From assembly GCA_963713255.1 (NCBI GenBank), contig CAVQLC010000002.1:99746-163745 (forward strand): a DNA stretch of 64,000 nt, given 5' to 3'. The notes beneath the pieces were generated by a model. The model saw only the letters and a list, made by a program, of their open reading frames with translations, made no database searches and was not told the DNA's origin. Source of the DNA: an uncultured Actinomycetota bacterium. GTDB taxonomy: Bacteria; Actinomycetota; Actinomycetes; Propionibacteriales; Nocardioidaceae. The position numbers were made by a program, and so were the translations under genes. Shown piece by piece: positions 1 to 20,869 of the stretch. Each line of letters starts with the position of its first letter. Position 1 is the first letter of the stretch.

Positions 1-207
1 GAGACCGAGGATCGGCCCGCTGTCGAGCATGTAGACCCGGGAGGCGCCGGCCCGGGCGGCGAGGAAGCCCAGCAGGCCGGTCCCCGCGCCGAGGTCGACG
101 ACGACGTCGCCCGGTCGGACGCTCGCCGTCAGGGCTCGCTCGTAAGCCTCGATCTTGGAGCGATCACGAAAGTAGCCCGCGTGCTCGAGGAGCTCGGATC
201 GTGACAC
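1..207 (-). CDS. class I SAM-dependent methyltransferase, N-terminal 69 codons (rest lies beyond window start)
   Basis: Own translation from GTG 207-205: VSRSELLEHAGYFRDRSKIEAYERALTASVRPGDVVVDLGAGTGLLGFLAARAGASRVYMLDSGPILGL. Contains SAM motif I VVDLGAGTG. AAGGG lies 3 nt upstream. Absent from the ORF track because it runs off the window. Confidence 0.6.
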   Translation of the reverse strand, partial: MSRSELLEHAGYFRDRSKIEAYERALTASVRPGDVVVDLGAGTGLLGFLAARAGASRVYMLDSGPILGL

Positions 208-212
208 GACCC

Positions 213-361
213 TTAGTGAGAGTAGCTGGTCACATGGCCATCTGCATGTGGCGCCGCCGCCGTCGGCGACGGAGCCGCCGGGGCCCTGCACCAGGGTGGT
301 CAGGGCGCCGTAGTGGCGAAGCTCGGGCTGTGGTGTACACGAGACGAGCGTCGTTCGTCAT
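213..361 (-). CDS. small ORF directly after the cyclase-like gene; candidate lasso-type RiPP precursor, frame broken as assembled
   Basis: ATG 361-359 overlaps the upstream TGA (ATGA) and has GGAGGA 6 nt upstream. The as-read product (361..230) is MTNDARLVYTTARASPLRRPDHPGAGPRRLRRRRRRRHMQMAM. The adjacent frame reads PELRHYGALTTLVQGPGGSVADGGG. The end is unresolved (TGA 232-230 or TAA 215-213). Confidence 0.3.
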
Positions 362-2340
362 TGGTTTCCTCCGCAGATGGCTGTTGGCCCCACGGGCCCC
401 CACGCCACAAACGTAACACGATCCAGGCCCTGCGTTTCCGCCCAACCCGATTCTGTCCGCGTCAGCGACGCCATCAGGGCGGCCCCGGCGCTCAGGGCTG
501 CCCAGAGGTCGGAAGCCCGCCGGGCCGTCCGGACCGGCGGGCGAACTCGCGCCCCGTCCGGCGTCGTAGGTCGCCAGCAGCGGCCCCGCGTCCACCCGAG
601 CGCCCAGGGCGCCGAGCGCCGGGACGGCACGGTCGCGGTCGACCGCCGCGCAGCAGCTTGCGCATGTACGGGCCGGGAGAGGTCGGCCTTGTCCGTACCG
701 GGCCACGACGGACGAGGGCAGCCGTGCTCCGAAGGCCGCGCGGTGCAGTCCCCGGTGCTCGCCGTCCCAGCGGACCTGTGTCTCCGGCAGACGCAGGACC
801 AGCTCGACCAGCGTCGGTCCAGGAACGGATAGCGCACCTCGACGCCGCGGTCGGCGGCCACAGGTCGTTCATCTGGTAGCGCCGCGGGCCCCCAGACGGC
901 GTCCACGTAGTAGCGAGCCCGGCTGGCCGTCGCGCGGTCCACACCGACGCGGTGCGCCCCGTGGACCGGGGGCAGGGGCGCGGAGACGTTCAGCCAGGGG
1001 TGGGCACGGTCCAGACGCCGCTGACGGGTGCCGAACCAGAGCGGTGTGGGCGTGGCCGCTGCCGTGCACCGGCGCGCTCGGCCGCGGTGACCGCCGCCTC
1101 GCGCGCCAGGCTCGTGGCGATCCACCGAGCCGGCCGTCCAGCGGCGCCAGGCCGCTGCTCCCGGCCGTGGTCAGGGCCTGTCGCAGCCGGCCGCAGGCCG
1201 CGAGGTCGACGACAGCGACGTCCTCGCCGTACAAGGCCTCGTCCCCGCCCACGCCGGTGAGCGACACCGAGCACCCGTGGCCGCGGCCCAGGCGTAGATG
1301 GCGTCCGTGTCGGCGGCGTCGGTGGCGTACAGCGGCTCGCCGTGCCGCCGGGCGAAGTCCACGGGTCGACGACGTCGAGGTCGTCGGCCTCGAGGAGCGT
1401 CGAGGGGGATCCCGAGGTGATCCGCGACGGCTTGCTGGTGGCTGATCTCGTCGGCCTCGGGGTCGCTGTCGGAACGCCAGGCCGACCGCACGGACGTCGC
1501 CGCCCAGAGCTGACGGCGGTGGCGGTCACGGTCGAGGAGTCGAAGCCGCCGCTGACGTCGCAGCTGACCCCGTCCGCGGGTCCGCAGGCGGCCGCGAACC
1601 GCTTCGTCGAAGGCCTCGCGCACCTGCTCAGCACGTCTCGCTCGACGCGCCTGGTCCACGGACGTCGAGCGACGGGCCGCCACCAGCGGCGCATCGTCGC
1701 TCCGCTCTTCGCCCAGCACCAGGGCGTGACCCGCGGGGAGCCGGTCGCACACCCGCTCCAGAGCGAGCGGTCGGCGGCGGCATGCCGGCGAGGTAGCCGG
1801 CGAGGTACTCCTCGTCCAGCGGCCGGCCGCCGGGGCAGGCCGGCCAGGACGGCGGCGACCGAGGACGCCACCACCACGCCGTCTGGCCGCCGACGCTGTA
1901 GCAGAGCGGCCGGACCCCGACGTGCGTCCCGAGCGGCGAACAGGGTCTGCCGGGCGCCGTCCCAGAGAGCGAACCGAAGTCGCCGACGAGGTGGTCGGGG
2001 CAGTCCGGGCCCCACCGCTCGTACGCCGCCAGGATCAGGTCGGCGTCGGTGTCCAGGGGTTGACGGGACGCGCCGCGCAGCAGCCCGCGCAGCTCGGCGC
2101 CGTTGTCGATCCGGGCGTCGGCGGTCAGCCAGAGGTCTCGCGTCGGGGTGGCGTTGCGGCAGCCGTTCGCGCTCCGCCTCGCGGGTGGTCCACCGCGCGG
2201 CGTGCAGCAGGGTGCACGGGCCCACGGTGGTCGGCTCCGAGCGGTCCCCGCCGCGCCGGGCGATCGTCTCGGCCACCGCGGCCGTCTGGGCTGCCACCTG
2301 CCGCGCGTCGGCGTGCGAGAAGGACGGCGAAGCCGCTCAC
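358..2340 (-). pseudogene. asparagine synthetase B-family enzyme, lasso-cyclase-like; at least 6 frameshifts as assembled
   Basis: Track ORFs 2125..2340, 990..2297, 1171..1752, 869..1267, 358..1125, 492..944 and 230..706 together read as one AsnB-like protein. Recognisable pieces: MSGFAVLL (Ser, not Cys, at position 2), FALWDGARQTLFAARDA, CDVSGGFDSSTV (SGGxDS PP-loop), SLTGVGGDEALYGE, GVEVRYPFLDRRLVELVLRLP. Confidence 0.7.
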
Positions 2341-2343
2341 CCC

Positions 2344-2640
2344 TCAGCCGGCGACGACGAGGAGGTCGCGCTGGAGCAGCTCACCGACGAGCGCCTGGAG
2401 GTCCGCGGCGAGCACGTCCCGCTCGACGGCGTACTCCGCGTGGATCGAGTCGACGACGGAGTCCAGGGTGCGCGGCTCCTCCAACAGCTCGAAGACGCGC
2501 GCTCCGACGCCGTCCAGCCCGTAGAACTGCTCGCTGTCCAGGTCGAGGATCACCGTCTCGGCGCCGGCGCTGCGACGGAGCACGCCGTCGGCCGCACGCA
2601 ACACCGTTGCGCCCGGGACGTGCGGCAGGGACTGTGACAT
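2344..2640 (-). CDS. PqqD-family protein (RiPP recognition element, lasso B1-like)
   Basis: Track ORF 2344..2676 with the start moved to ATG 2640 (GGAGAG upstream). Reads MSQSLPHVPGATVLRAADGVLRRSAGAETVILDLDSEQFYGLDGVGARVFELLEEPRTLDSVVDSIHAEYAVERDVLAADLQALVGELLQRDLLVV. Its stop lies 3 nt before the cyclase-like start. Confidence 0.75.
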   Translation of the reverse strand: MSQSLPHVPGATVLRAADGVLRRSAGAETVILDLDSEQFYGLDGVGARVFELLEEPRTLDSVVDSIHAEYAVERDVLAADLQALVGELLQRDLLVVAG

Positions 2641-2733
2641 GGGCTCTCCGGCGGTGTGGAAGATTAGGCACCACACGGCGTGTGGGTCTCCTCATGCTAG
2701 GCGTTGTCCCCCGCGCGATCGAACCGTTGGTAG

Positions 2734-3717
2734 GTGAGCGAAGCTGATCCATCCTGACGTCGAGCGAGCCGCCCTGGCCCTCGGACTGGACGCCGCCACC
2801 GCCGAGGTCGTCTCCCCCTCGAGTCCCGGGGCGTGTCGACGGTCCTGCTCAAGGGGCCGGCGGTCGCGCTGTACCTCTACCCCGAGAACCCGTCCCTGCG
2901 CACCTACCGCGACATCGACCTGCTGGTGGACCCGCAGGTCTTCGACGCGGCCGAGGCACTGCTGGCCGGGCTCGGGTACTCGCTGCTCGACCGAGGACCT
3001 GAGCCACCGTGAGAAGTCCTGGCTGATGGAGACACCGTGGGAGCGACCGGGGTCACCGCCGACCATGGTCGACCTGCACCGGGCGTTCCACGGCGTGGAC
3101 GACTGGGAGGCGTGGTGGACCCAGATGGACCGCCACACCCAGACCTGCCGGGTGGGTGGGTCGTCGGTGCGGATCCCGGACGCCGCGGGCTGCGCGTTGA
3201 TCGTGGCGCCTGCACGAGACGGCGGTGGGCCGCAACGCGCAGTCCGCGGAGGACCTGGACCGAGCGCTGGCGACGTTCGACGAGGCCGTGTGGGCCGAGG
3301 CGGCGCGACGTGCCGACGACGTGGGACGCGCTCGGGATGGTTCACGCTCGGCCTGTCGCGGCACCCGCTGGGCCGGCTGCTGGCCGAGCGGCTCGACCTG
3401 CCGCGCCGGCTCCCGCTCGAGGTCGCCGCCCGCTCCAGTGACGGTGAGGGCACCGATCCCGCCGAGGTCCGCGCCTGGATCCTCCTGCACCGCCTGGGGC
3501 GGACCCGCTCCTGGCGCGAGCGCGGGCTCACGTTGTGGAGCCTCGCGTTCTCCGCCGGGTCGCTGCGCACGTCGAGACCCCTGGCCAGGCAAGGCTGGTG
3601 GGGGCTGACCTGGTGCGGCTGCAGCGGCCGTTCGAGCTGGCGGCCCGCGCTCCCGGCGTGGCGTACCGGCTGTGGGTCGGGAACCGCAGGGCGCGCTGGT
3701 CCCAGCGGCGCTCCTGA
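2734..3717 (+). pseudogene. NTP_transf_5-type nucleotidyltransferase family protein; at least 4 frameshifts as assembled
   Basis: Own three-frame reading gives ESRGVSTVLLKGPAVALYLYPENPSLRTYRDIDLLVDPQVFDAAEALLAGLGYSLL, then MVDLHRAFHGVDDWEAWW, then a tail LVRLQRPFELAARAPGVAYRLWV (track 3535..3717). It parallels the intact paralog at 30248..31159 (LLHLKGPALLAGL...SSDVDVLVQPDQF). Confidence 0.55.
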
Positions 3718-3720
3718 CCC

Positions 3721-4734
3721 TCAGTCCGGCTCGACCCGTTTCATGCCGACCAGACCGGGCCGGTACGACGGGTCCTCGAGCTCCGCGACGGTCGGATGGC
3801 CGAACATCGGCAACCCCTGGGTGCGCCGGATCAGGCCCCAGACCAGCGGGACCAGCACGACCATCACCAGGCCGACGACGCCGATCAGCACCGGGTGCGT
3901 GTCGTCCTCGCCGGCGCCGAGCGGTCCCCAGCCGGCCTTGTCCAGCAGCGCGACCCCGGACATGGTCAGCACCACGACGATGCCGCGCCGGATGATCGAC
4001 TGCGGCACCCGCGGGGCGATCAGGCTGCCGAGGATGGTGCCCGGGACCGAGCCGATGATGAGCGGGATCGTGACCGACCAGTCGAGGCCGTGGAGGGCGA
4101 TGTTGGAGATGGCCGCGGCCAGCACCAGCGGCACCGCCTGCACCAGGTCCGTGCCGACCAGCTTCACCGCGGTCAGGCCCGGGTAGAGCATCAGCAGGGC
4201 GATCATGATCACCGAGCCGGAGCCCACGCTGGTGATGCCCACGAGCAGGCCGCCCAGGGCCCCGACCAGCAGGGTCGGGATCGGCCGGATCTTGGGGTTC
4301 TCGTCGCCCGGAGGTGCGCCGGACCGGACCCGGCGCAGGTTGATGTAGAGCCGCGCGGCGTACGTCGCGGCGGCGAGGAGCAGCGCGAAGCCGATGCACA
4401 GCTTGAGCACCCGGTCGAGGTCTCCGGGAGGAGCGATCGCGTTGATCAGGTGCGGGCCCAGCAGTGCCATCGGCACCGAGCCGATGATCAGCCACTTGGC
4501 CAGCGTCATGTTGGGCGAGCCCTCGCGCTTGTGCACGACCGCGCCGCCGGTCTTGTAGACGGCGGCCGCCGTGAGGTCCGCGGTGACGACGGTCGCGGCG
4601 TCGCCGACGCCGAGGAAGATCAGGGCCGGCGTCATCAGCGCGCCGCCGCCCATGCCGGTCAGGCCGACGACGGTGCCGACGAAGAAGCCGGCCGCCAGGA
4701 TGGCGAAGAACGTCGTGGTGATCTGGTCAGCCAT
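3721..4734 (-). CDS. TauE/SafE-family anion (sulfite/sulfate-type) permease
   Basis: Intact 337-aa ORF, polytopic and Gly-rich. Repeated halves GLTGMGGGALMTPALIF and GITSVGSGSVIMIALLML are typical of TauE/SafE. Confidence 0.85.
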   Translation of the reverse strand: MADQITTTFFAILAAGFFVGTVVGLTGMGGGALMTPALIFLGVGDAATVVTADLTAAAVYKTGGAVVHKREGSPNMTLAKWLIIGSVPMALLGPHLINAIAPPGDLDRVLKLCIGFALLLAAATYAARLYINLRRVRSGAPPGDENPKIRPIPTLLVGALGGLLVGITSVGSGSVIMIALLMLYPGLTAVKLVGTDLVQAVPLVLAAAISNIALHGLDWSVTIPLIIGSVPGTILGSLIAPRVPQSIIRRGIVVVLTMSGVALLDKAGWGPLGAGEDDTHPVLIGVVGLVMVVLVPLVWGLIRRTQGLPMFGHPTVAELEDPSYRPGLVGMKRVEPD

Positions 4735-4777
4735 GGGTGCCTTCGGGGGTGCGGGGTGGGGGCATAGCCGCGGAAGT

Positions 4778-6565
4778 CTACTGACTCGCCTGAGTTGGTC
4801 GCAGCGCTGGGACGACGATACCGAGCAGGTCGTCGATCCGGGCCTTGCACGTCGCGGCGACCTCGGGACCGCGGCGGTACGGGTCGTCCACGTCGTGGCG
4901 GGGGTCCGCCTGGGACCGGTGCCGGCCGATCTCGGCGACCAGCGCGCGACCGCGGGGGGCGTCGGCGCCCAGCGTGGCCACCGCGTCCGCGAACTGACCG
5001 AGCGTGAACACCTTGCGGAACGCCCCCGGGGTCTCCTCGAGCAGGTAGGTGCGGTGCGCGGCCTCGGCGGTGAGCACCAGGTCGGCCGCCTCGACCAGGT
5101 CGACGGTGGCGCGCCGGCTGCGGAACCTGCGGGCGTCGGTCTCGAAGCCGCCGATCATCTCCTCGCTCATCGGACGGTCGGCGAACCCGTGGGTGCCCGC
5201 GCTGGACACCTCGATCCCGGAGGCCGGACCGAGCAGGCGCCGGGTCGCCAGCTCCATGTACGGCGAGCGGCAGATGTTCGCGGTGCAGACGAAGAGGACC
5301 TTGAGGGGCGGGTTGTCGGCGTGCCCGGGTCTCGAGGCTCGCTCCGCTCGCACCTCGACCACCGGGGTGGCCGCGTCCGTCAGGTCGAGGTAGCCGGCGT
5401 CGCGGAGTGCGACGAGGACGTCGTCGAGGGCGTCCTCGATGGACCGGCCGGTGGTGTCGACGCGCACGGCCGCGTCCTCCGGCACCTCGTAGGGCGAGGA
5501 GATGCCGGTGAACTCCGGGATCTCGCCGCGCCGGGCCTTCGCGTAGAGACCCTTGCGGTCGCGTCGCTCGCACTCCTCCAGCGGGGTGGCCACGTGCACG
5601 AGGAAGAACGCACCGCCGGCCTCCTCGACCATCGCCCGCACCTGTCGCCGGGTCTCGTCGAACGGCGCGATCGGGCTGCACACGGCGACGCCGCCGTGCC
5701 GGGCGATCTCGGCGGCGACCCAGCCGATCCGGCGGATGTTCGTCTCCCGGTCCTCCTTGGAGAACGTCAGCCCCGCCGAGAGGTGCCGGCGGACGACGTC
5801 ACCGTCCAGGCTGGTCACGCTCCGGCCGCCGCGCTCCAGCAGGCGGTCCATCAGCGCCCGCGCGAGCGTGGACTTGCCGCTGCCGGAGAGCCCGGTGAAG
5901 AACAGCACCAGGCCCTGCTCCTCGGGAGCCGGCCGGTCCGCCGTCACGATCGCGGCCAGCTCGTCGGGCAGCTCGCCCCCGTCCACCAGCCCGTGCACGG
6001 GGTCGCCGTCGGCGTAGACGCCGACCACCTGGGCCCCGAGGGCGTGGTCCACGTCCGCGTCGCCGTGGCTCGCGAGCGGGACCACGACGACGTCGGCGGC
6101 CGGGAGCGTGGCCGCGGCGACCAGGGTCGCCCGCACCAGGGCGGTGGGGGAGAGCTCAGGGGTGCCGGTGCCGGCGAGCGCCAGCAGCACCAGCGGCCCA
6201 CGGCCGCGCAGGTCGTCGAGCTGGGTGTCGGTGAGCGCGTCGACGACGGGCACGAAGGTGCGCCCGGCGTACCGCGCGCGGACCTCGGCAGGCGGGAGGT
6301 AGAGGCGGCGGAACGGGCCGTACTGCGCGTGGGTGAGAGGCTCGACGGCCGAGCCCGCGGTGACCCGCGCGAGCGGCAGGCCCTCGGGGTCGACCAGCTC
6401 GACGGACTCGGCCCCGTGCAGCTCCTCGGGCAGGTCGAGCGTGAGCGGGCTGCCGGGCTCGTTGAAGCCGGTGACCGGTGCGGCCGCCCCGGTGACGATC
6501 AGCTCGAGGTCGTCGAGCTCGGTCGGGCTCGGGTGGTGCTGGGGAGGCGTCGGCACGCGGATCAT
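4778..6565 (-). CDS. cysC: fusion protein: sulfurylase-like N-terminal region + adenylylsulfate (APS) kinase + C-terminal low-molecular-weight phosphotyrosine phosphatase
   Basis: Intact ORF 4778..6625; start placed at the internal ATG 6565 (MIRVPTPP), with 6625 as an alternative. APS kinase: FFTGLSGSGKSTLARAL, PEFTGISSPYEVP. LMW-PTP: VLFVCTANICRSPYME (CX5R) and DDPY. Confidence 0.8.
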   Translation of the reverse strand: MIRVPTPPQHHPSPTELDDLELIVTGAAAPVTGFNEPGSPLTLDLPEELHGAESVELVDPEGLPLARVTAGSAVEPLTHAQYGPFRRLYLPPAEVRARYAGRTFVPVVDALTDTQLDDLRGRGPLVLLALAGTGTPELSPTALVRATLVAAATLPAADVVVVPLASHGDADVDHALGAQVVGVYADGDPVHGLVDGGELPDELAAIVTADRPAPEEQGLVLFFTGLSGSGKSTLARALMDRLLERGGRSVTSLDGDVVRRHLSAGLTFSKEDRETNIRRIGWVAAEIARHGGVAVCSPIAPFDETRRQVRAMVEEAGGAFFLVHVATPLEECERRDRKGLYAKARRGEIPEFTGISSPYEVPEDAAVRVDTTGRSIEDALDDVLVALRDAGYLDLTDAATPVVEVRAERASRPGHADNPPLKVLFVCTANICRSPYMELATRRLLGPASGIEVSSAGTHGFADRPMSEEMIGGFETDARRFRSRRATVDLVEAADLVLTAEAAHRTYLLEETPGAFRKVFTLGQFADAVATLGADAPRGRALVAEIGRHRSQADPRHDVDDPYRRGPEVAATCKARIDDLLGIVVPALRPTQASQ

Positions 6566-6623
6566 CCTGCCACCCGGCCGGGTCCCGCCGAGCCGCCCAC
6601 CGGGGCCGACTAGCCTGCCCGGC

Positions 6624-7601
6624 ATGTCTGCTCCAGTGCCGGTGGCCGAGATCGTCCGCTCGGGTTTCGTCGAGGGCCACCACTACGGCTCGGTCGTCGC
6701 CCTGGACCTCGACGGAGCGGTCGCCTGGTCGGTGGGCGTCGTCGACGAGCCGATGCTGCCCCGCTCCTGCAACAAGCCGGTCCAGGCGCTCGGCATGGTC
6801 CGCGCCGGGCTCGACCTGCCGCCCGACCTGCTCGCCCTGGCCTGCGCCTCGCACAGCGGGGAGCCCATCCACATCGAGGGGACGCGGCGCATCCTGGCCC
6901 TGGCGGGCCTCGACGAGGACGCCTTGCAGACCCCGGCGGACTACCCCTTGGACGAGCACGCCCGGGAGCTGGTCATCCGCGCCGGCGGCGGACGCGCGCC
7001 GATCCTGATGAACTGCTCGGGCAAGCACGCCGCGATGCTCGTCACCTGCGTGGTGAACGGGTGGGACACCACGACCTACCTCGACCCCGGGCACCCGTTG
7101 CAGCGGGCGCTGCGCGACACGTTCGGGGAGCTCACCGGCGAGCCGGTGGCCGTGGTCGCCGTGGACGGCTGCGGTGCGCCGCTCTTCTCCGCCTCGTTGG
7201 TCGGCCTGGCCACCGCGTTCCGCCGGATCGCCCTGGGCGTGGACGGCCGGGACGAACCCGACCCCGACGCCCGGCGCGTGGCCGAGGCCATCCGGGCCCA
7301 CCCGGAGTACGCCTCCGGCACGGCCCGCGACGAGGCCGCGCTGCTGCGGGCCATCCCCGGCGCGGTCGGGAAGGCCGGGGCGGAGTCCTGCTACGCCGTG
7401 GCGCTGGCGGACGGCCGCGCGTTCGCGCTCAAGACCGACGACGGCGCCCCCCGGGTGCGGCCGGTGCTGATGGCGGCCGCGCTGGCGCGCAGCGGCGTCG
7501 ACCTCGAGCCGGGGGTGGACACCGAGGCGGTCCACCGCACCGGCGTGCTCGACCTGCTCGGGGGCGGGGTGCGCGTGGGGGAGATCCGCGCCACGTTGTG
7601 A
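6624..7601 (+). CDS. L-asparaginase II-family protein
   Basis: Internal ATG (M98) of track ORF 6333..7601. Reads MSAPVPVAEIVRSGFVEGHHYGSVVALD...PRSCNKPVQALGMV...ACASHSGEPIH...MNCSGKHAAML...VDGCGAP. Confidence 0.8.
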   Translation: MSAPVPVAEIVRSGFVEGHHYGSVVALDLDGAVAWSVGVVDEPMLPRSCNKPVQALGMVRAGLDLPPDLLALACASHSGEPIHIEGTRRILALAGLDEDALQTPADYPLDEHARELVIRAGGGRAPILMNCSGKHAAMLVTCVVNGWDTTTYLDPGHPLQRALRDTFGELTGEPVAVVAVDGCGAPLFSASLVGLATAFRRIALGVDGRDEPDPDARRVAEAIRAHPEYASGTARDEAALLRAIPGAVGKAGAESCYAVALADGRAFALKTDDGAPRVRPVLMAAALARSGVDLEPGVDTEAVHRTGVLDLLGGGVRVGEIRATL

Positions 7602-9352
7602 TGGTGCAGGCTGCCCCCATGCACTACGTCGGGATCGACCTCGCGTGGGGGGAGAAGCAGCCCACCGGGGTGGCGGTGCTCGACGCGGACGCCCGGCTCG
7701 TCCACCTGGGCACGGTGCGCACCGACGACGAGATCGCGGCCGCGCTGGCGCCGTACGTCGAGGGCCGCTGCCTGGTCGGCATCGACGCCCCGCTGGTCGT
7801 GCGGAACGCGACCGGCTCCCGGCCGGCCGAGCAGGCGCTGAGCAAGGACTTCCGGGCGTTCGAGGCCGGCACCCACCCGTCCAACACGACCAAGGCGGAG
7901 TTCGCCGACGGTCACACCCGCGGCGCCCGGGTCGCCAAGCGGCTGGGCCTCGACATGGACCCCCGGTCGGGTCGCGAGCGCCGGGCGATCGAGGTCTACC
8001 CGCACCCGGCGATCGTGGTGCTCTTCCGCCTGGGCCGCACCCTGAAGTACAAGAACAAGCCCGGCCGCGACTTCGCCGAGCTGCGCAGCGAGCTGCTGGC
8101 GCTGATGGGCCACCTCGAGGGGGTCATCTCCCCCGACCAGGCGTGGCGGCGGCTGCGCGCCCAGGTCGAGACCGCGACCCGGAAGAGCGAGCTGCGGGTG
8201 GCCGAGGACCAGGTCGATGCCGTGGTCGCGGCGTACGTCGCCCTGTACGCCGACCGGCACCCCGAGCTCACCACCACCTACGGCGACTTCGAGACCGGCT
8301 ACATCGTGACGCCCACGCTGCCCGACGGGCATACCGCGACCCCCCGGGCCCCGCGGGCGACGCGGCCGCCCGCCGACCCGGTGACGGCGTACGCCGCCCA
8401 GCACCCGGAGCTCACCCGGGCCGCGGAGCAGTGGACCGCGCTGGTCACCTCGATCCTGGACGACGCGGGCATCAACTACCTCACCGTCACGGGGCGCGCG
8501 AAGACGATCTCGTCCTTCGCCGCCAAGGCGGCGCGCGTCGAGAACGGCGAGCCGAGCTTCACCGACCCCCTGACGGAGATCACCGACCAGATCGGCGTGC
8601 GCGTCATCACCTACGTGCACAGCGACGTGGCGGCGGTCGTCGACCTGCTCGGCGACCAGGTCGTCATCCACGACGACCGGGACATGGGCCGGGAGACCGC
8701 CAGCGAGGGCCGCTTCGGCTACGCCAGCCGGCACCTGCTGGTCGGTCTGGACGCGCCCCGCGAGCACCTGCCGGCGTACGAAGCGCTGCGGGGGCGTCGG
8801 GCGCAGGTGCAGATCCGCACCGTCCTGCAGCACGCGTGGGCGGAGTTCGAGCACGACATCCGGTACAAGGGCACCATCCCCGACGAGCACGTGCCGGACT
8901 TCGACCGGCGCTTCACCCTGGCCGCCGGGCTGCTCGAGCTCGCGGACCGCGAGTTCTCGACGATCCGGGACCGGCTCCAGGCGGGCATGACCGACCAACC
9001 GACGGCGCCCGGCGACGACGACCCGCGGATCAGCCCGCGTGAGCTGGCGGCCTTCCTGGCCGGGCAGTACTCCGACGCCGGCTGGTCGCGCACCGACCAC
9101 TACGCCTGGATCTCCGGGCTGCTGCTGGAGCTCGGCATCACGTCGCTGGACGAGCTGGGCGACGTGCTGCGGGCCCTGGACGGCGCCGACCTCACCGCCC
9201 GGATGGGCTACCGGTACCCGCCGGGCGCGGTGCGCCGCCTCGACGACGCCCTGCTCGCGGCGTACGGCGAGCGGTACGTCGGGCTGCGGGGCAACGCCCA
9301 CCGGGAACCCGCGCTGCGGGCCCGGCTGGAGAAGCTGGTCGACGGAGCCTGA
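7601..9352 (+). CDS. DUF429 (predicted RNase H-fold nuclease)-RelA/SpoT nucleotide pyrophosphokinase fusion protein
   Basis: M181 of track ORF 7061..9352; the ATG overlaps the asparaginase stop by 1 nt. N-terminal part: HYVGIDLAWGEKQPTGVAVLD...GIDAPLVVRN...EVYPHPA. C-terminal part: ITDQIGVRVITY...GRFGYASRHLLV...VQIRTVLQHAWAEFEHDIRYK, followed by an extra tail of about 130 aa. Confidence 0.75.
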   Translation: MVQAAPMHYVGIDLAWGEKQPTGVAVLDADARLVHLGTVRTDDEIAAALAPYVEGRCLVGIDAPLVVRNATGSRPAEQALSKDFRAFEAGTHPSNTTKAEFADGHTRGARVAKRLGLDMDPRSGRERRAIEVYPHPAIVVLFRLGRTLKYKNKPGRDFAELRSELLALMGHLEGVISPDQAWRRLRAQVETATRKSELRVAEDQVDAVVAAYVALYADRHPELTTTYGDFETGYIVTPTLPDGHTATPRAPRATRPPADPVTAYAAQHPELTRAAEQWTALVTSILDDAGINYLTVTGRAKTISSFAAKAARVENGEPSFTDPLTEITDQIGVRVITYVHSDVAAVVDLLGDQVVIHDDRDMGRETASEGRFGYASRHLLVGLDAPREHLPAYEALRGRRAQVQIRTVLQHAWAEFEHDIRYKGTIPDEHVPDFDRRFTLAAGLLELADREFSTIRDRLQAGMTDQPTAPGDDDPRISPRELAAFLAGQYSDAGWSRTDHYAWISGLLLELGITSLDELGDVLRALDGADLTARMGYRYPPGAVRRLDDALLAAYGERYVGLRGNAHREPALRARLEKLVDGA

Positions 9353-9356
9353 CCGG

Positions 9357-10191
9357 TCAGTGCGGCCAGACGGCGCGGACCTGCGCGGCCACCTCGCGGG
9401 ACTGGCGCAGGCCGGTGCGGGCCGCGTCGGCGCGCTTCTCGGGGTTGAGCACGTTGCGCCCGATGTCGAGGGCCGCCTGCTTGTCGGGCTTGACCACCAC
9501 CGAGCGGACCGGGCCGATCCGGCGCAGCTGCGCGGCGATCGAGGTGGCCCGGCTGAAGGCCTGCGGCAGCGGCGCCAGCACCACCACGACGTCGGCGCCG
9601 CGGGCCACGTCGACGTTGGCCGTCGACCGCATGCCACCGTCCATGAAGTGCCGACCGTGGATCGTCACCGCGGGCCAGACCAGCGGGACCGCGCAGCTCG
9701 CGGCGACGGCGTCGACGAGGTCGACGCCGCTGTTCTTGTCGAAGGTGACGAACTCGCCGGAGTCGGTGTCGACCGAGGTGATGAGCAGCTCCCGGTCGGG
9801 CCAGTCGGTGACGTCGATCCGGGACCGGATCACCTCGATCCGCTCCGTCGCCCCCGGGCGTGTGCGCCTTGGTCGACAGGCGGCCGATCCGGCGGCGCTT
9901 GCGGGTGGGCGCGCCGGGCACCAGCAGCGGCGGCAGCAGGCGGGCCAGGTCGTTGCGGCCCATGGTGGAGCCGATCTCGTGGTCGGGGGGCTCGAGCTGG
10001 AGGTCGTAGAGGTCGGCGAGATCGAGGCCCGAGGTGATCTGGGCGCCGACGACGGAGCCGGCCGAGGTCCCGACGACCCGGTCGGCGTCGGTGAGCTTCA
10101 GGCCCTGCTCCGCCAGCCCCTGGAGGATGCCGAGCTCCCAGGCGATGCCGGTGATCCCGCCGCCGCCGAGCACGAGTGCCGTACGTGTCAT
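9357..10191 (-). pseudogene. patatin-like phospholipase; one frameshift near 9835-9850 as assembled
   Basis: Track ORFs 9208..10191 (MTRTALVLGGGGITGIAWELG...GTSAGSVVG) and 9357..9833 (...HFMDGGMRSTANVD) join into one patatin fold, with GGGxxG, GxSxG and DGG motifs. Confidence 0.75.
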
Positions 10192-10292
10192 GGCGCGACC
10201 CTAGGCGGTCGGAGCAAGCGCCGCGCACCCGTGTGAGCCGACTCACGGGGCCTCAGCTTGCAAATGCTTGCTCTTGCTAGCAGGGTGGAGGC

Positions 10293-10679
10293 ATGGCCAG
10301 GAGCAAGGTCGGGCAGACCGTCGAGTCGCTCGGCGAGTACCTCAAGGAGCAGCGGGTCTCGGCCCGCCTCTCCCTGCGGCAGCTCTCCGAGCAGGCCGGC
10401 GTCTCGAACCCGTACCTCAGCCAGATCGAGCGTGGTCTGCGCAAGCCCTCGGCCGACGTCCTGCAGCAGATCGCCAAGGCGCTGCGCATCTCGGCGGAGC
10501 AGCTCTACATCCGCGCCGGCATCCTCAGCCCCGAGGACCTGCAGGCCGGCTCGGAGCGGTCCGTGGAGCTCGCGGTGCTCGCGGACTCGGGGCTCACCGA
10601 GCGGCAGAAGCAGTCCCTGCTCGACGTCTACGCGTCCTTTCTCGCCCTCAACGGGCCCGTCGAGGACGACGACCGCTGA
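10293..10679 (+). CDS. XRE-family helix-turn-helix transcriptional regulator
   Basis: Intact 128-aa ORF with GGAGG before the ATG. HTH region: LSLRQLSEQAGVSNPYLSQIERGLRKPSADVLQQIAKAL. Confidence 0.85.
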   Translation: MARSKVGQTVESLGEYLKEQRVSARLSLRQLSEQAGVSNPYLSQIERGLRKPSADVLQQIAKALRISAEQLYIRAGILSPEDLQAGSERSVELAVLADSGLTERQKQSLLDVYASFLALNGPVEDDDR

Positions 10680-10729
10680 CCCGGGCACCCGGCACCCGCC
10701 GGACGCCCACCCCACCGATAGGAGAAGTC

Positions 10730-11338
10730 GTGGCTACCAAGTCCCGCACCAAGATCGACCTCAAGACCGTGCAGACCCCCTTCTACGCGACCGTCGGCGT
10801 GACCGACCTCGCCGTCGAGGCCGTGCGTGAGTACGTCGCCGACGTGCAGACCCGCGTCCGTGGCTACCAGAAGGACGTCCAGAAGACCGTCGCCAAGGTC
10901 GACCTCCAGCCCAAGGTGCTGCGCGACCAGGCCGTCACGGTCCTCTCGGCCCGCGTCGACGCCCTCACCGCGCTGTCCGGCGACGCCAAGGCCGTCCCGG
11001 CCAAGGTGCAGACGCTCGTCGACGAGAACGTCGCCGTGCTGAACGACACCTACGGTGACCTGGTCAAGCGCGGCGAGAGCCTCGTCGGCCGGATCCGCCG
11101 TCAGCAGTCGACCCAGCAGACCGTGAAGTCCGCCGAGACCACCGTGTCGAAGGCCAAGACCACGAAGACGCAGGCCACCAAGGCGACCAAGACCACGGCC
11201 AAGAAGGCCACCACCACGGCCAAGAAGCAGAGCGCCTCGTCCAAGAGCAGCGCCAAGGCCACCGTCACCGCGGCCAAGAAGACCGCGTCCTCGGCCACCC
11301 AGGCCGTCGCCGACGCGGCCGAGAAGGTCGGCGACTGA
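10730..11338 (+). CDS. HbhA-like (heparin-binding hemagglutinin-like) coiled-coil protein with Lys/Ala/Thr-rich C-terminal tail
   Basis: GTG (V155 of track ORF 10268..11338) with AGGAGA upstream. Starts VATKSRTKIDLKTVQTPFYATVGVTDLAVEAVREYV. Tail is KAKTTKTQATKATKTTAKKATTTAKKQSASSKSSAKATVTAAKK. It sits between an XRE regulator and DUF2516, as I recall for mycobacterial Rv0474-Rv0476. Confidence 0.6.
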   Translation: MATKSRTKIDLKTVQTPFYATVGVTDLAVEAVREYVADVQTRVRGYQKDVQKTVAKVDLQPKVLRDQAVTVLSARVDALTALSGDAKAVPAKVQTLVDENVAVLNDTYGDLVKRGESLVGRIRRQQSTQQTVKSAETTVSKAKTTKTQATKATKTTAKKATTTAKKQSASSKSSAKATVTAAKKTASSATQAVADAAEKVGD

Positions 11339-11351
11339 CCGTCCCCGCGTC

Positions 11352-11386
11352 GAGACCCCCCGGACCCCCGTGGTCCGGGGGGTCTC
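11352..11386 (+). terminator. perfect 15-bp stem / 5-nt loop hairpin after the HbhA-like gene
   Basis: GAGACCCCCCGGACC-cccgt-GGTCCGGGGGGTCTC, 14 nt after the stop. No T-tract, which is common in actinobacteria. Confidence 0.5.
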
Positions 11387-11430
11387 GTGCGTCCGGGGCC
11401 GGCGTCGGACCCATCACCTACGATGTCTGC

Positions 11431-11718
11431 GTGACCACGTTCGCCGTCGAGGGCTGGATCTCCATCGCGATCCTGTTCGTGCTGCTCGCGGTGAAGGGCT
11501 TCGCCTTCGTCAGCTCGCTGACGTTCTCCGCCGAGGCCTACTCGGCCGGGGACAAGCTCTCCAAGACCGCCTGGGTGGCGATCCTGGGGCTCGGGCTGGC
11601 CGCTCAGCTGCTGCTGTTCACCTCGCCGCTGAGCCTGATCCACCTGGCCTTCACGATCGCCGCTTTCGTGTACCTCGCCGATGTCCGGCCTGCTCTCGCG
11701 GCGCTGACTCGTCGCTGA
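11431..11718 (+). CDS. DUF2516-family small membrane protein
   Basis: Intact 95-aa ORF with three hydrophobic helices: WISIAILFVLLAVKGFAFV, AWVAILGLGLAAQLLLF, IHLAFTIAAFVYLADV. Confidence 0.7.
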   Translation: MTTFAVEGWISIAILFVLLAVKGFAFVSSLTFSAEAYSAGDKLSKTAWVAILGLGLAAQLLLFTSPLSLIHLAFTIAAFVYLADVRPALAALTRR

Positions 11719-13093
11719 CGGGCGGCGCGTCGCTCTCGTAGCCGTACCCGTAGCCGTAGCCCGTAGCCCTGGCCGGACTTCTTCGCCGGTGCCTGGTTGA
11801 TCACGACGCCGAGCGTCTTGGCGTCGACGGCGGAGAGCCGCTCGAGGGAGTGCGTGAGCTGGTCGGACGTGGTCTGGCCGTGCCGGACCACCACGAGCGC
11901 GCCGTCGGCCTCGGCGCCAGGAGGGCGGCGTCGGTGACGGGCAGCAGGGGAGGAGCGTCGAGGACGACGACGTCGAAGCGCTCGCGCAGGTCCGACGAGC
12001 AGCTTCTCCATGGCGGTCGACTGGAGCAGCTCGGAGGGGTTCGGCGGCACGTGCCCGCAGACGAGCACGTTCAACCCGGTGCCTCCGTAGACCTGCAGGG
12101 CGTCATCGATGCTCAGCCGTGCCGATCAGGACGGACGTGGTGCCGATGCTGCCGTCGAGGCCGAGCCGCTTGCCGAGCTGGGGGCGGCGCAGGTCGCACT
12201 CGACGAGGACCACCCGCCGCTTGGCGAGCGCGAGCGCGAGCGCGAGATTGGCGGCGACGGTCGACTTGCCCTCCCCGGGAAGGGAGCTGCTGACCACGAA
12301 GACCAGCTTGTCGGTGTCGACCTCGACGTACTGCATGTTGGTGCGCAGCACCCGGAACGCCTCGGCCCAGGGACGCGTCCCGTTGAGGGCCTCCTGCGGC
12401 GAGGCTTCCGGGCCGCTTCGGCGTCGAAGAAGATGTTGCCGAGGATCGGCGCCGGGGTGATCTCGGCCGATGTCCTCGACTGGACGAGATCCGGGTGTCG
12501 AGCCGGTGCCGCAGGACGGCCAGGCCGAGACCCGAGGAGCAGGCCCGAGGATGCGCGGCCGAGAGCGAGGTTGCGACGGGTTGCGGCGAGACCGGCGTCG
12601 TCGACACCTGCGCGTCGTCGACGATGGTGGCCTTGATCGAGCGCGTCCCGATCACCGGCCGGGGGCTCGAGATCCACGACGAGCTCGCTCAGGCCCTCGG
12701 CGTAGGCCTGGGCCATGACGCGGGCCTGCTCGGGGTCCGGCGCCGTGGCGGTGATCTCGAGGATGACGGTGTCCGGGACCACGCTGGCCGTGACGCTGCC
12801 GCTCGGGTCGACACCGTCTGCTCTCCAGGGACTCAGATGACCCGCTCCCGCGAGCTGGGTGGACTGCGATCAGGTCGGCGTACGACGCCGCCCGCATGGA
12901 GGCGAAGAGCTCGCCGGTGTAGGCGGCGCTGCTGCCCGACGAGCTGGTCGAGATGAAGAGTCGAGCCGTCGACGAGTACAGCGGGGTCGCGGTCCAGGTG
13001 AGCGCCGCGGCGACAGCCACCACGACGGCGAGGCTCGCCACGATGATCCGCCAGCGTCGCCGCAGGACGATCCGCGTAATCCTTCAGCTCCAC
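11653..13093 (-). pseudogene. polysaccharide co-polymerase / BY-type tyrosine autokinase (Wzc-like); many frameshifts, 3' end uncertain
   Basis: GTG 13093 gives VELKDY. A shifted frame continues RIVLRRRWRIIVASLAVVVAVAAALTWTATPLYSS. Walker A is SSSLPGEGKSTVAANLALALA (track 12103..12351), followed by VPPNPSELLQS. The Tyr cluster GYGYGYGY is encoded by the GTAGCC repeat at 11738-11769. Confidence 0.7.
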
Positions 13094-13281
13094 CCGACAT
13101 CTGACTCCCGGGAGTCCGTCCGGAAGCGGCGTAACCCTAACCGCAGGTTCCTCGTCGGCTGCATCGTGGACACATTCGCTCGGGTGAAGCGGATCCGAGC
13201 TGCGGCACGTATGGTGTCGGCTCGCGGGGGAGTCCATCGCGGGCGCACGAACAGAGAGAAGATCTTGGGGTTCACGGACTT

Positions 13282-15120
13282 GTGCAGCGCGGGATCTCCA
13301 CGCTGCGGCGACGCCGCACGCGCCTCCTCATCACGTTCGACGTGCTGGTGTGGATGGGTGGCGGGTGCTCGGTCGCGGCGCTGCTGCGTTATCCCGAGCT
13401 GAGGTCAGCCCTCCGTGGGGCTCGGTGCTCGTCATGGCCGCCTGGCATGGGCGTGCTCTACATCGGCCTCGGCATGCTGATCAGGCTGCACGAGGGCCGG
13501 GCTCGCACCGCCAGCTTCGACGAGATGCTGCTGCTCGGGTCGGTCGCCCGCGCTCGCGGTGCGTGGTCTTCGTCGTCCAACCTCTTCAGCACGTACGTGG
13601 CCCGCAGCCTGCCCGCCATCACGACCTTGTGCTTCGTCGTGCTGGCGCCTGTGGCGGGCGGGCTCTGTGGCGGCGGCTGGTGGAGCGAGACGCTCGCTGG
13701 CGGCCGTGCAGCCCGCTCGGACGCGTCGGACGTGCTCCTGGTCGGGGCCGGTGAGGCGGCCCGGGAGCTGATCAGCTCCATGCTGAGGGACCCGAGCACG
13801 ACGTGGCGACCCGTCGGGCATGCTCGACGACGACCCGCGCAAGCAGCATCTCCGGGTGCGCGGCGTGCCGGTGCTCGGCCCGATCGCGCGACCTCGCGGC
13901 CCAGGTCGGGCGGACCGCAGGTCGACAGGGTCGTCCTCGCCATCCCGAGCGCCGGCAACGAGGTGGTCCGCGAGGTCACCCGCATGGCGGCCGCTGCCAA
14001 GGTCGACCTCAAGGTGCTGCCCGCGGTCGACCGAGCTCCTCACCGAGCACGTGGGCATCCGCGACATCCGCGACCTCAACCTCACGGACCTGCTCGGCCG
14101 CAACCAGCTCGACACCGACATCGAGGCCATCGCCGGCTACGTGACGGGCAAGCGGGTCCTGGTCACCGGCGCGGGGGGTCGATCGGGTCCGAGCTCTGCC
14201 GCAGATCGATCGGTTCGCGCCCGCCGAGCTCATCATGCTCGATCGCGACGAGTCCGCCCTGCACGCGGTGCAGCTGTCCTTCCGCGGCCGGGCGATGCTG
14301 GACTCGGACGACGTCGTCCTCTGCGACATCCGGGACGCGCAGCCCCTGACGCAGATCTTCCGGAGGCGTCGGCCCGACGTCGTCTTCCACGCTGCGGCCC
14401 TCAAGCACCTCCCGATGCTGGAGCAGTACCCCGCCGAGGCGGTCAAGACCAACGTCATCGGCACCCGCAACGTCCTCGACGCGGCTCGCGCCGCCGGCGT
14501 CCGCCGCTTCGTCAACATCTCCACCGACAAGGCCGCCAACCCGGAGAGCGTGCTCGGCTACTCCAAGCGCGTGGCTGAACGCATCACGGCGACCTACGCC
14601 GAAGACGCAGACGACGCGGTCTACGTCTCCGTGCGCTTCGGGAACGTCCTGGGCAGCCGCGGGTCGGTGTTGACGGCGTTCGCCGACCAGATCGCCCGCG
14701 GCGGGCCGGTGACGGTGACGCACCGATGTCACCCGCTACTTCATGACGATCGAGGAAGCGTGCCAGCTCGTGGTCCAGGCGGGAGCGATCGGCGAGCCCG
14801 GTCAGGCCCTGGTGCTCGACATGGGGGAGGCGGTGCGGATCGTGGACGTCGCGCACCAGCTGATCGACCTGGCCGGCCGCGAGATCGACGTCGAGTTCAC
14901 CGGCCTTCGCGAGGGAGAGAAGCTGCACGAGGACCTGTTCGGTGACGGCGAGCCGCACGACATCAGGCCCGACCATCCCCTGATCTCGCACGTGCCAGTG
15001 CCACCGGTTCCACGGGCCGAGGTCTCGGCCCTGTCCACCCGGGCAGCAACCCGGAGATCATCGCCGGCCTGGCCGCCCTGTGCTTCGACGAAACCCAGCG
15101 GCGTGACCCGCGCGGGTTAG
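13282..15120 (+). pseudogene. membrane-anchored CapD/WbpM/PglF-like NDP-sugar 4,6-dehydratase; at least 5 frameshifts as assembled
   Basis: Joined frames read VLLVGAGEAARELISSMLRD, MLDDDPRKQHLRVRGVPVLG, VLAIPSAGNEVVREV, KRVLVTGAGGSIGSELCRQI, VVFHAAALKHLPMLEQYPAEAVKTNVIGT, FVNISTDKAANPESVLGYSKR, RFGNVLGSRGSV and [16 protein letters not shown]. Confidence 0.75.
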
Positions 15121-15121
15121 C

Positions 15122-15538
15122 GTGGTGGACGTGACTGGGGGAGACAACGCGCGTGCCGCCGACACCACGGGCGACCACGAGGAGCGTCCGTGGGGGTCCT
15201 GGCACGTCGTCGAGCAGGGCGACGGCTACAAGGTGAAGCGGATCGTCGTGACTCCGCACCACCGGCTGTCCTACCAGACCCACGAGCACCGTTCCGAGCA
15301 CTGGGTCGTGGTGCGCGGCACCGCCACCTGCCTGATCGAGGGCGAGTCCGTGGTCGTGCGGGCGGGTGAGTCCGTCGACGTCGGGGTCAAGCACGCCCAC
15401 CGGATCGCCAACGAGCACGACGACGAGCTGGTGATCATCGAGGTGCAGCGCGGGCCCTACCTGGGCGAGGACGACATCGTCCGGCTCCAGGACGACTACG
15501 GTCGCGAAGAGGCCGGCTCGGAGAGCCGTCGGCGCTAG
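15122..15538 (+). CDS. cupin-domain protein resembling the C-terminal mannose-6-phosphate isomerase domain of type II PMI/GMP enzymes
   Basis: Intact 138-aa ORF: RPWGSWHVVEQGDGYKVKRIVVTPHHRLSYQTHEHRSEHWVVVRGTA...HRIANEHDDELVIIEVQRGPYLGEDDIVRLQDDYGR. Confidence 0.7.
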   Translation: MVDVTGGDNARAADTTGDHEERPWGSWHVVEQGDGYKVKRIVVTPHHRLSYQTHEHRSEHWVVVRGTATCLIEGESVVVRAGESVDVGVKHAHRIANEHDDELVIIEVQRGPYLGEDDIVRLQDDYGREEAGSESRRR

Positions 15539-16934
15539 TCGGCCGCGCAGTAGCGCTCGAGGGCCGTCCGCGCGTCCTCGGGCTCGAAGCCGGTGGCCTC
15601 GATCTTGGCCAGCGACATCATGCTCCGCCGCGGGCGGGGCGCCATCTCCTTGCCGGCGCCGTACGCCTCGGTCGTCGTCGGCGTGACGTCGTCCGGGTCG
15701 CGGCCCGACAGCGCGAAGACCGCCTTGGCCAGGTCGGCCCACGACGTCGCCGGCCCGCCGTTGCTGATGTTGTAGGTGCCGTACGCCGCTCCCGTGTCGA
15801 CCAGGTGCCGGGTGGCCCGGGAGAGCTCGGAGGCGAACGTGAGCCGGCCGACCTGGTCGTCGACGACGCTCGGCGAGACCCCCTTCTCGGCCAGCGAGCG
15901 CATGGTGCGGACGAAGTTGTGGCCGTCCCCGATCACCCAGGAGGTGCGCAGCAGGTAGTGCCGGGGCGTGGTGCCGACGGCGATGTCGCCCGCGGCCTTG
16001 GACTGGGCGTAGACCCCGAGCGGCGACAGCGGCTCGTCCTCGGTGTGCTCGTCGGCGGTGCCGTCGAAGACGTACTCCGAGGAGTAGTGCACCAGCGTGA
16101 GGTGGTGGTCGCGCGCGACCCGGGCCAGCACGGCGGGCGCGGACGCGTTGGCCGCCCAGGAGGCGACCCGTCCCGGACCCGTCTCGGCGGCGTCCACCGC
16201 GGTGTAGGCGGCGGCGTTCAGGACGAGGGCGTACTCGTGCCACGGCCAGGCGGCCACCGCCGCGGGATCGGTGACGTCGAGCGCGGTCACGCCCTCGCCG
16301 GCGAACAGGTCGACGAGGTCGGCGCCGGGGAAGTCGCGCTGCAGCGCCCGACCGAGCTGGCCGAGGGCCCCGATGATCAGCGTCCTCTTCGGCGCCATCG
16401 GGGTGACGTCGGCCAGGCGCGGGGTGGCGAGGTCCTTCTCGGAGATCTCCGAGTCGGCCAGCGGGATCGGCCAGGCGATGGCCACGGTCTCGTCGGCGAG
16501 GTTCAGCGCCGGGTAGGCGACGCCGGGACGCCAGTGCTCGTTGACGAGGTAGGTGTAGGCCGTGCCGTCCTCGAGCGTCTGGTAGCTGTTGCCGACCCCG
16601 CGGGGCACGAAGACCGCGACCGACGGGTCGATCTCGATGGTGAACGTGGTGCCGAAGGAGTCGCCCTCACGCATGTCCACCCAGGCCCCGAACACCCGGC
16701 CGGTGGCCAGCGTGACGAACTTGTCCCACGGCTCGGTGTGGATGCCGCGGGTGGCGCCCCGGGCGGTGTTGAACGAGACGTTGTTCTGCACCGGGCCGAA
16801 GTCGGGCAGCCCGAGGGCGACCATCTTCTCCCGCTGCCAGTTCTCCTTGAACCAGCCCCGGGCGTCCTCGCGGACGTCGAGCCGCAGCACGACGAGGCCG
16901 GGGATCGGCGTGGTCTCCAGCGACGGTGCCGCCA

Positions 16935-16935
<1 letters not shown>
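15535..16935 (-). CDS. rmlCD: bifunctional dTDP-4-dehydrorhamnose 3,5-epimerase / dTDP-4-dehydrorhamnose reductase
   Basis: M27 of track ORF 15535..17013; the start overlaps the rmlB stop. N-terminal RmlC part: IPGLVVLRLDVREDARGWFKENW...NVSFNTARGATRGIHTEPWDK. C-terminal RmlD part: LIIGALGQLGRAL...HYSSEYVFDG...PLGVYAQSKAAGD. Confidence 0.85.
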
Positions 16936-17943
<1,008 letters not shown>

Positions 17944-17957
17944 CTAAGGTGGGGCGC

Positions 17958-18845: not shown

Positions 18846-18860
18846 TCCCGTAGACCCGGA

Positions 18861-19817: not shown

Positions 19818-19824
19818 GGGGAGG

Positions 19825-20805: not shown

Positions 20806-20869
20806 GCGGCTCAGTGTGCCAGCGACCCACGGTCGGCGGTCGCACCGGCCGAGACCTAGGGTGGGCGCC

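Follow-up and report, generated by a model that had tools for sequence, protein, structure and literature searches.

Near the start of a 64,000-nucleotide (nt) stretch of contig CAVQLC010000002.1 from an uncultured Actinomycetota bacterium (we refer to this whole stretch as the window), a small open reading frame (ORF) occupies positions 361-230 of the minus strand. We find that this ORF is very probably the precursor gene A of a lasso-peptide cluster of the split-B type, garbled by two compensating 1-nt consensus errors. The gene runs from ATG 361-359 to TGA 232-230, and its reconciled product is MTNDARLVYTTPELRHYGALTTLVQGPGGSVADGGGA(G/S)MQMAM, a peptide of 43 residues with the same length, start and stop as the assembled ORF. 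Divided into leader and core, the peptide reads MTNDARLVYTTPELRHYGALTTLVQ|GPGGSVADGGGA(G/S)MQMAM. This sequence combines the window, homologous precursors and a second assembly of the locus (L094; contig_23926, 589 kb, of ENA metagenome ERZ25039547), which we reached through the window's intact TauE protein. A first-pass annotation, made from the letters alone, had proposed a lasso-peptide precursor here, and that identity is supported by a match to a family profile (E=1.9e-10), by homologous loci and by the second assembly.

Reading frame and sequence of the precursor

As assembled, the ORF translates as MTNDARLVYTTARASPLRRPDHPGAGPRRLRRRRRRRHMQMAM, followed by the stop. The neighbouring frame reads ...PELRHYGALTTLVQGPGGSVADGGGATCRWPC..., with GGC (Gly1) at 285-283 and GAC (Asp8) at 264-262. 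We compared the frames by their G+C content at the third codon position (GC3), which is 0.95-0.97 in intact genes, the GC content of the window being 73%. Within 328-251 the shifted frame scored 24/25 and the assembled frame 16/26; within 250-233 the assembled frame scored 6/6 and the other two frames 2/5 and 1/5; below 230 no frame was coding-like. Therefore, the gene begins in the assembled frame, exits it near 329 and re-enters it near 250. A profile hidden Markov model (HMM) built from 8 homologous precursors was searched against all 1,073 six-frame pieces of the window, and the sole significant match was PELRHYGALTTLVQGPGGSVADGGG (the runner-up had E=2.8). The run of arginines in the assembled translation, suspected in the first pass to be a wrong-frame product, is indeed one by these measures, as GC3 and the family HMM both favour the shifted frame and no homologue has an Arg run.

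The first error lies at 331-328 (minus strand), where the window reads ACAG with one base surplus, most likely A329; the true sequence is ACC ACG CCC GAG (Thr-Thr-Pro-Glu). At this site L094 reads ACG CCC GAG, and the homologous loci L083 and L084 have one 3-nt codon (CGT) against the window's 4 nt. The second error lies at 252-248 (minus strand), where GCC-AC-ATG lacks one base between GCC (Ala12, 252-250) and ATG (Met14, 247-245); L094 reads GCC GGC ATG here and L083 reads AGC AGC ATG. The precursor looks wrong because a surplus base at about 329 and, 79 nt away, an omitted one at about 249 displace its 26 middle codons from their frame, while the assembled start and stop are both right. The earlier proposal that a single base be dropped within 326-331 had located the surplus base correctly, but one correction is not enough, a second indel being present at 252-247. 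Because this second indel leads back to the original frame, the C-terminus, which the first pass had left unresolved, is settled as the assembled ...MQMAM ending at TGA 232-230, and a TAA at 215-213 in the third frame is irrelevant to it. We rejected two other corrections. If the missing base stood right behind the GGC run, as L083 might suggest, residues 12-13 would be (S/G)H, but L094 reads GCC GGC ATG; explaining the first site by two lost bases, not one gained, would break the YxxPxL motif, and L094 reads ACG CCC there. Upstream of the gene, the putative ribosome-binding site GGAGGA sits at 372-367 (minus strand), where it had first been placed, with a spacer of 5 nt (AACCA) before the ATG rather than the 6 nt claimed; it is kept at the same place in L083 and L084. 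All other features that the first pass had read from the letters are present as described.

The corrected leader comprises 25 residues (361-286, minus strand) and reads ...Y(-17)TTP(-14)EL(-12)RHYG(-8)ALTTLVQ, with Tyr(-17) at 337-335, Pro(-14) at 327-325, Leu(-12) at 321-319, Gly(-8) at 309-307, Val(-2) at 291-289 and Gln(-1) at 288-286. It thus contains the published leader pattern YxxPxLxxxG with Gly at -8, as anticipated in the first pass, and these positions are invariant in our family alignment (A2). The corrected core, GPGGSVADGGGA(G/S)MQMAM, comprises 18 residues (285-233, minus strand) and includes Gly1 (285-283), Gly3 (GGC 279-277, also Gly in L094), Ser5 (273-271), Asp8 (264-262) and Met14 (247-245). 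Lasso cores start with Gly, Ala, Ser or Cys and have Asp or Glu at position 7-9, and both features are found here in Gly1 and Asp8. The proposed geometry for an 8-residue macrolactam is therefore present, with Asp8 as the predicted partner of Gly1, and Gly1, Asp8 and Gly9 are invariant in the same alignment. The Thr(-2) usual in lasso leaders is replaced by Val in the window and in all family members. This residue had been listed as a weak point; it is, however, invariant in the approximately 20 family members, and the authors of the work on the kinase-associated clusters report that Ile or Val at -2 goes with kinase-containing lasso clusters (PMC10368454). As a documented exception of this kind, Val(-2) is no bar to lasso membership.

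Homologous loci share one gene order: a divergent N gene, B1, the cyclase gene C, a small ORF of 40-48 residues, a methyltransferase of the PrmA/PRMT_C type (380 residues), an HPr-kinase-related protein (305 residues), an ATP-binding cassette (ABC) transporter and a Transglut_core3 protein (B2). A scan of species-representative genomes with the cyclase alignment added four Aeromicrobium loci with the same order and 46-48% identity, and eleven more loci came from a metagenome scan that started from the precursor alignment. Altogether, about 20 homologous loci have a 40-48 residue ORF directly after the cyclase gene, and the small ORF that the first pass expected in relatives is found between the cyclase and the next gene in all loci covering the position. 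The family consensus is Y-x-R-P-E-L-R-x-Y-G-A-[IL]-T-x-x-V-Q followed by G-x-S-G-x-x-x-D-G. Over all 43 residues, the closest relatives of the corrected peptide are the precursors of L083 (77% identity) and L084 (74%). The L083 precursor, from a metagenome, reads MSNDARLKYTRPELRHYGALTALVQGNSGSLADGGGSSMQMMMGK, and a single frame covers its head (MSNDARL), its middle and its tail (MQMMM). In the distant locus L008 the precursor reads ...ALTQ|GSSG...D, and we therefore place the cleavage site after Gln. Core variants in the wider family include Ala1 (L090), Ser1 (L095) and Glu8 (L089, L095). Two tandem precursors with unlike cores are present at L003:7950-8346, and a family-type precursor (…PELRAYGAITRLVQGMSGAGLDGLSGMGGMSMGGM) at L087:5001-5099 stands apart, the roughly 5 kb to each side of it containing nothing recognisable as a cluster gene.

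Alternative readings and the nature of the frameshifts

Several observations weigh against the lasso assignment or blur the corrected sequence. The core lacks Ser3, the family's conserved phospho-acceptor, which is present in all other cores examined. Residue 13 is ambiguous between Gly and Ser (A-C in the window, GGC in L094, AGC in L083), and so are the first 4-5 leader residues, which differ between the two assemblies. The tail, GGGA(G/S)MQMAM, offers Met and Gln alone as candidate plugs, and since large aromatic and basic residues are missing from it, stable threading is not assured. The authors of the bsf study never detected a mature product from the bsf cluster of Bradymonas sediminis FA350 (PMC10368454), which contains BsfA and is the closest characterised relative; a mature lasso has been seen for no member of this subfamily. 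Finally, Pfam and NCBIfam returned no family for the corrected peptide, the assembled peptide or two homologous precursors, a null result that is uninformative either way because those libraries have no models for such short precursors.

One alternative is that the gene is a real family precursor whose end product is an unthreaded branched-cyclic peptide, or a linear phosphorylated or methylated one, and not a lasso. Such a product would suit the Gly/Ser/Met-rich tails of the family, with their few bulky plug residues, and the report that bsf gave no detectable mature lasso in five hosts (PMC10368454). However, the full lasso set of B1, B2 and C is conserved, the cyclase keeps the family-invariant residues (64/66), and Gly1 and Asp/Glu8 are retained at canonical spacing. 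Medium-sized side chains can, moreover, plug eight-residue rings. On balance, we consider an unthreaded product unlikely.

A second possibility is that the frameshifts are real and that the window carries a decaying pseudogene cluster in which the precursor is a dead relic. The comparison with L094 bears on this directly. The two assemblies are 96.9% identical over window positions 1-14738, with 162 gap openings, of which 85 fall in window 1-2500, many in 11000-14700 and 0-1 per 500 nt in 3500-11000. The L094 precursor reads ...AC ACG CCC GAG... and ...GCC GGC ATG CAG ATG GCC... and thus has neither of the window's errors; the assembled frame, whose confirmation by accurate reads would have spoken for the Arg-rich translation, is not confirmed by this independent assembly. 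Within the same 130 nt, L094 has four errors of its own (GT-TAC, AC-ACG, GGG-CCC and AT-TGA). The N gene gives one 323-residue match in L094 and three pieces in the window (tblastn), and the cyclase, methyltransferase, kinase and ABC transporter genes of L094 are broken at other places than in the window. Near-identical genomes with private, discordant indels imply that the frameshifts are consensus errors and not biology, and by this comparison of sequences the indels in the precursor are consensus errors of a poor assembly rather than a feature of the gene.

What favours decay is the uneven distribution of the damage: indel density in 1-3700 is about 10 times that of the clean stretch 3721-7600, and the B1 gene (about 300 nt) is unscathed, an outcome roughly 2% likely under uniform errors of 1.3% per nt. 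Against this, the two near-identical assemblies have different indel positions in the same genes, with N intact in L094. The corrected cyclase has no stop and keeps 131/134 conserved columns, which misfits 25 fixed indels under neutral decay. Unrelated genes are frameshifted too, even inside P-loop and Walker motifs; among the interrupted genes, a BY-kinase is hit in its P-loop (32001) and an ABC transporter close to Walker B, and glycosyltransferases and a metalloprotease are broken as well. Frameshift density is indeed patchy, with none in 3721-7600 and very high values in 1-3700 and 11000-15000, but patchiness fits a consensus built over strain-variable islands, which is probably its origin: in a comparison of window 1-4734 with the syntenic relative L084, the lasso island has 72-78% DNA identity, compared with 91.5% for the flanking TauE gene. 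We regard a pseudogene cluster as distinctly improbable.

At least 40 frameshift-like switches were also seen outside the lasso region, for example at 32001, 37730-39948, 48000-50900 and 60300-62100. These came from a 7-state GC3 Viterbi segmentation, which undercounts close frameshifts in 1-2000 and was applied solely to switches elsewhere. A global DNA alignment of the window with L084 was unusable for indel counts, as at about 75% identity it contains many spurious 1-nt gaps, and for this reason we chose a protein-guided frameshift alignment. In L094 (region 8110-21014) the island lies between APS-kinase/TauE and cysH/cysN, within a sulfate-assimilation locus.

Two further readings concern the frame itself. 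A single frameshift near 329 would continue the peptide as …GGGATCRWPC… to an unclear end, either at TAA 215-213 or in a fusion with the methyltransferase; the one-base-shifted frame is in fact open from 357 to the window start and is the methyltransferase frame (GTG 207-205). After 250, however, GC3 in this frame drops to 2/5, compared with 6/6 in the assembled frame, and L083, L084 and L094 all read ...GGG-x-x-MQM.... TGA 232-230 leaves a 22-nt spacer to the methyltransferase gene, similar to the 24-35 nt of the homologues, and a precursor-methyltransferase fusion occurs in none of the approximately 20 loci, so that a single frameshift is highly improbable. That the ORF as assembled is right, its product being an Arg-rich 43-residue peptide (…RRLRRRRRRRHMQMAM), has next to no probability, for although the ORF is unbroken, with a good ribosome-binding site, start and stop, its middle has a GC3 of 16/26 (24/25 in the shifted frame, which matches the family at the E-value given above, and 0.95-0.97 in real genes), its Arg run is found in no homologue and its frame is not reproduced in L094.

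The lasso cluster and its characterised relatives

The precursor gene belongs to a cluster with the order N (divergent), B1, C, A, methyltransferase, HPr-kinase-like kinase, ABC exporter and B2. The lasso cyclase gene C, asparagine-synthetase-like, spans 2340-462 (minus strand), from GTG 2340-2338 to its true stop, TGA 464-462, and has 25 frameshifts as assembled. A hand-joined query of the cyclase matched its best homologue, P0001, with 56% identity (E=1e-198), and the 25 frame changes in 1.9 kb were counted in a frameshift-aware protein-to-DNA alignment to P0001. Within a 25-member family alignment, the corrected cyclase retains 64/66 invariant columns and 67/68 near-invariant ones, and no stop interrupts its frame. 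A 411-residue wrong-frame product (P0047) of the cyclase region (window 990-2297, minus strand) is present in a protein database. The cyclase ends ...AALMAY in L094 and ...AALLTV in L084, immediately before the stop that corresponds to TGA 464-462 of the window, where an indel throws it out of frame; the resulting read-through (464-358) has 38 codons with a GC3 of 0.66. The letters of the ATGA overlap between precursor and AsnB-like gene that had been described are present, with ATG 361-359 overlapping TGA 360-358 of the cyclase reading frame as assembled, but with the real stop at 464-462 there is no true overlap, and its appearance is evidently an artefact of the assembly.

Upstream of the cyclase gene, B1 (2640-2344, minus strand) is intact and encodes a PqqD-like recognition element for peptides that are synthesised ribosomally and modified post-translationally (RiPPs), with a Pfam PqqD match at 5.6e-16 and a tblastn match over 2640-2347; its matches to the NCBIfam lasso PqqD chaperone models (1e-10 to 1e-9) both fall under the curated cut-offs. 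The divergent N gene, a nucleotidyltransferase of the NTP_transf_5 type, lies at about 2770-3700 (plus strand; ends approximate), is frameshifted in the window and has the motif LLKGPA...YRDIDLLV; Pfam PF14907 is found in the N proteins of homologous loci. Downstream of the precursor, the first 69 codons of the methyltransferase gene (207-1, minus strand), with GTG 207-205 and motif I VVDLGAGTG, are truncated by the window start. Past this point, L094 contains the kinase (15678-16602), the ABC transporter D (16605-18410) and B2 (18535-18864). B2, a transglutaminase-like protease, matches NF033537 at 4e-19 in homologous loci. The neighbours expected of a lasso precursor are thus all found, B1 and C in the window and B2 in L094 and the homologous loci. 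The kinase gene, outside the window, is present in L094 and in all homologous loci that extend far enough to include it; when the PDB was searched with the kinase sequence, P-loop noise alone came back. Elsewhere in the window, a second cassette at 28756-31176 (minus strand) lies within a polysaccharide-biosynthesis locus with no cyclase nearby. It consists of an NTP_transf_5 gene (30256-31176), a PqqD-like gene (29700-30255) and a gene (28756-29699) whose P-loop protein matches PqqD weakly at its C-terminus.

The sequence comparisons show what the gene is, how its frame is corrected, to which family and cluster it belongs and that the indels are artefacts; the cleavage site, ring, threading and tailoring of the product we infer by analogy with lasso systems already characterised. 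B2 would cut after Gln(-1), reading Val(-2) in place of the usual Thr. The cyclase would then adenylate Asp8 and link it to the Gly1 amine, and the resulting 8-residue macrolactam would be threaded by the 10-residue Gly/Met-rich tail before export by the ABC transporter. Like BsfK, the kinase of relatives probably targets Ser3 for phosphorylation. Because it has Gly3, the window peptide may go unphosphorylated, or it may be modified elsewhere, for example at Ser5.

The precursor adds a member to a subfamily of kinase-associated lasso peptides that is already known but little studied. The bsf cluster comprises genes A, B1, B2, C, D, K and N (Duan et al. 2023, PMC10368454), and this gene set, with an ABC transporter as D and an HPr-kinase-like protein as K, is common to both systems. 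In BsfA the leader carries Ile at -2, a ring between Gly1 and Asp8 is predicted, and Ser3 is phosphorylated by BsfK (PMC10368454). Both systems have the leader motif YxxPxL at -17 to -12, a branched aliphatic residue instead of Thr at -2 and a predicted Gly1-Asp8 ring. The BsfA core, GTSGNEVDGST..., has the family motif GxSGxxxDG, and the BsfK catalytic motif H...G..G.GKS...DD is kept in the family kinase (blastp 4e-06). The other hallmarks of the BsfA type are found here as well, namely the pairing of Ile or Val at -2 with an HPr-kinase-like kinase (Val(-2), with the kinase in L094) and that of N with the ABC exporter D (N in the window, D in L094). In contrast, the Ser or Thr of the BsfA type at core position 3 is absent from the window core, which has Gly3 and hence lacks that phospho-site. 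The systems differ further in that the family kinase resembles BsfK in its catalytic core alone (43% over 44 residues), the family has Val(-2) and Gln(-1) where BsfA has Ile(-2) and Arg(-1), and the relatives found here are actinobacterial or metagenomic whereas bsf is from Bradymonadales. Moreover, most family members have a PRMT-fold methyltransferase gene between A and K, and bsf has none.

Other lasso systems resemble this one in part. The paeninodin and pseudomycoidin clusters of Firmicutes (PMC10368454, PMC9266682) share the split B1/B2, an HPr-kinase-like kinase and often a nucleotidyltransferase, but their kinases act on a C-terminal Ser and their leaders have Thr(-2). In the family described here the last core residue is A, L, G, Q, K, M, N or P, and in the window it is Met. 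A gene for an S-adenosylmethionine (SAM)-dependent methyltransferase beside lasso genes is shared with lassomycin/StspM, in which the C-terminal carboxyl is O-methylated, and with cellulonodin-2/lihuanodin, in which an aspartimide is formed via homologues of protein isoaspartyl methyltransferase (PIMT) (PMC9266682). The methyltransferase encoded here, however, belongs to neither the StspM/LasF nor the PIMT family.

The methyltransferase and the meaning of the corrected cluster

The piece of methyltransferase in the window is 75% identical to the methyltransferase of the homologous locus L002 (tblastn). Over both its catalytic and its barrel domain, the L002 protein matched the structures of PRMT1, CARM1 and PRMT6 (about 1e-17 to 1e-19), and it aligns to PRMT1 and CARM1 over residues 9-275 (about 1e-18 to 1e-19). 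Its Pfam domains are PrmA and PRMT_C, the latter weak; Pfam and NCBIfam matches were limited to PrmA, MTS and PRMT_C, with no Methyltransf_2 (mitomycin-O-methyltransferase-like) or PCMT/PIMT domain. Of the features of protein arginine methyltransferases, motif I (VVDLGAGTG) and the beta-barrel domain are present, and the THW loop and the double-E loop, whose two Glu grip the guanidinium group, are not conserved: relative to PRMT1, SEWMG...YES is replaced by CDQIGG...DAG (E to D and E to A), and THW by RMQ. Several family cores, including that of the window, contain no Arg. The enzyme has a PRMT fold but is probably not an arginine methyltransferase. In the open-access literature we found no PRMT-type enzyme tied to a lasso cluster.

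The methyltransferase gene directly follows the precursor gene in 14 family loci (for example L002:3347-4489, L083:273-1412 and L095-L097) and is absent from five Aeromicrobium-type loci (L004, L005, L007, L091 and L092). The cores of the two groups differ. In the 14 loci with the methyltransferase, all cores have 1-4 Met, usually as S-G-M at 11-13, and at most one Lys or Arg; Met is missing from the cores of the five loci without it, which have four Lys/Arg, and position 13, Met in the first group, is Lys or Arg in them. This correlation is real in the data and suggestive, with few independent lineages behind it. The methyltransferase is the sole unusual element of the cluster and the sole one that could represent new chemistry, and we tentatively raise the possibility that it installs a lasso tailoring not yet described. 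It may methylate Met to give a cationic sulfonium that mimics Lys or Arg; alternatively, phospho-Ser or a carboxylate may be the methyl acceptor.

Since the assembly is so ridden with errors, this lasso cluster will be overlooked or mistranslated by gene callers and RiPP miners, and the mis-assembled sequence has already spread to public protein sets (P0047). With the gene corrected, the rare kinase-associated lasso family with Ile/Val(-2) now takes in high-GC relatives from Aeromicrobium genomes and metagenomes, at about 20 loci. The natural variation among these precursors, with Gly3 or Ser3, Ala1 or Ser1, and Glu8, is useful for testing the specificity of B2 and of the kinase. In addition, the conserved PRMT-fold methyltransferase, which lies mostly outside the window, forms together with the Met-rich cores a candidate lead to new peptide chemistry.

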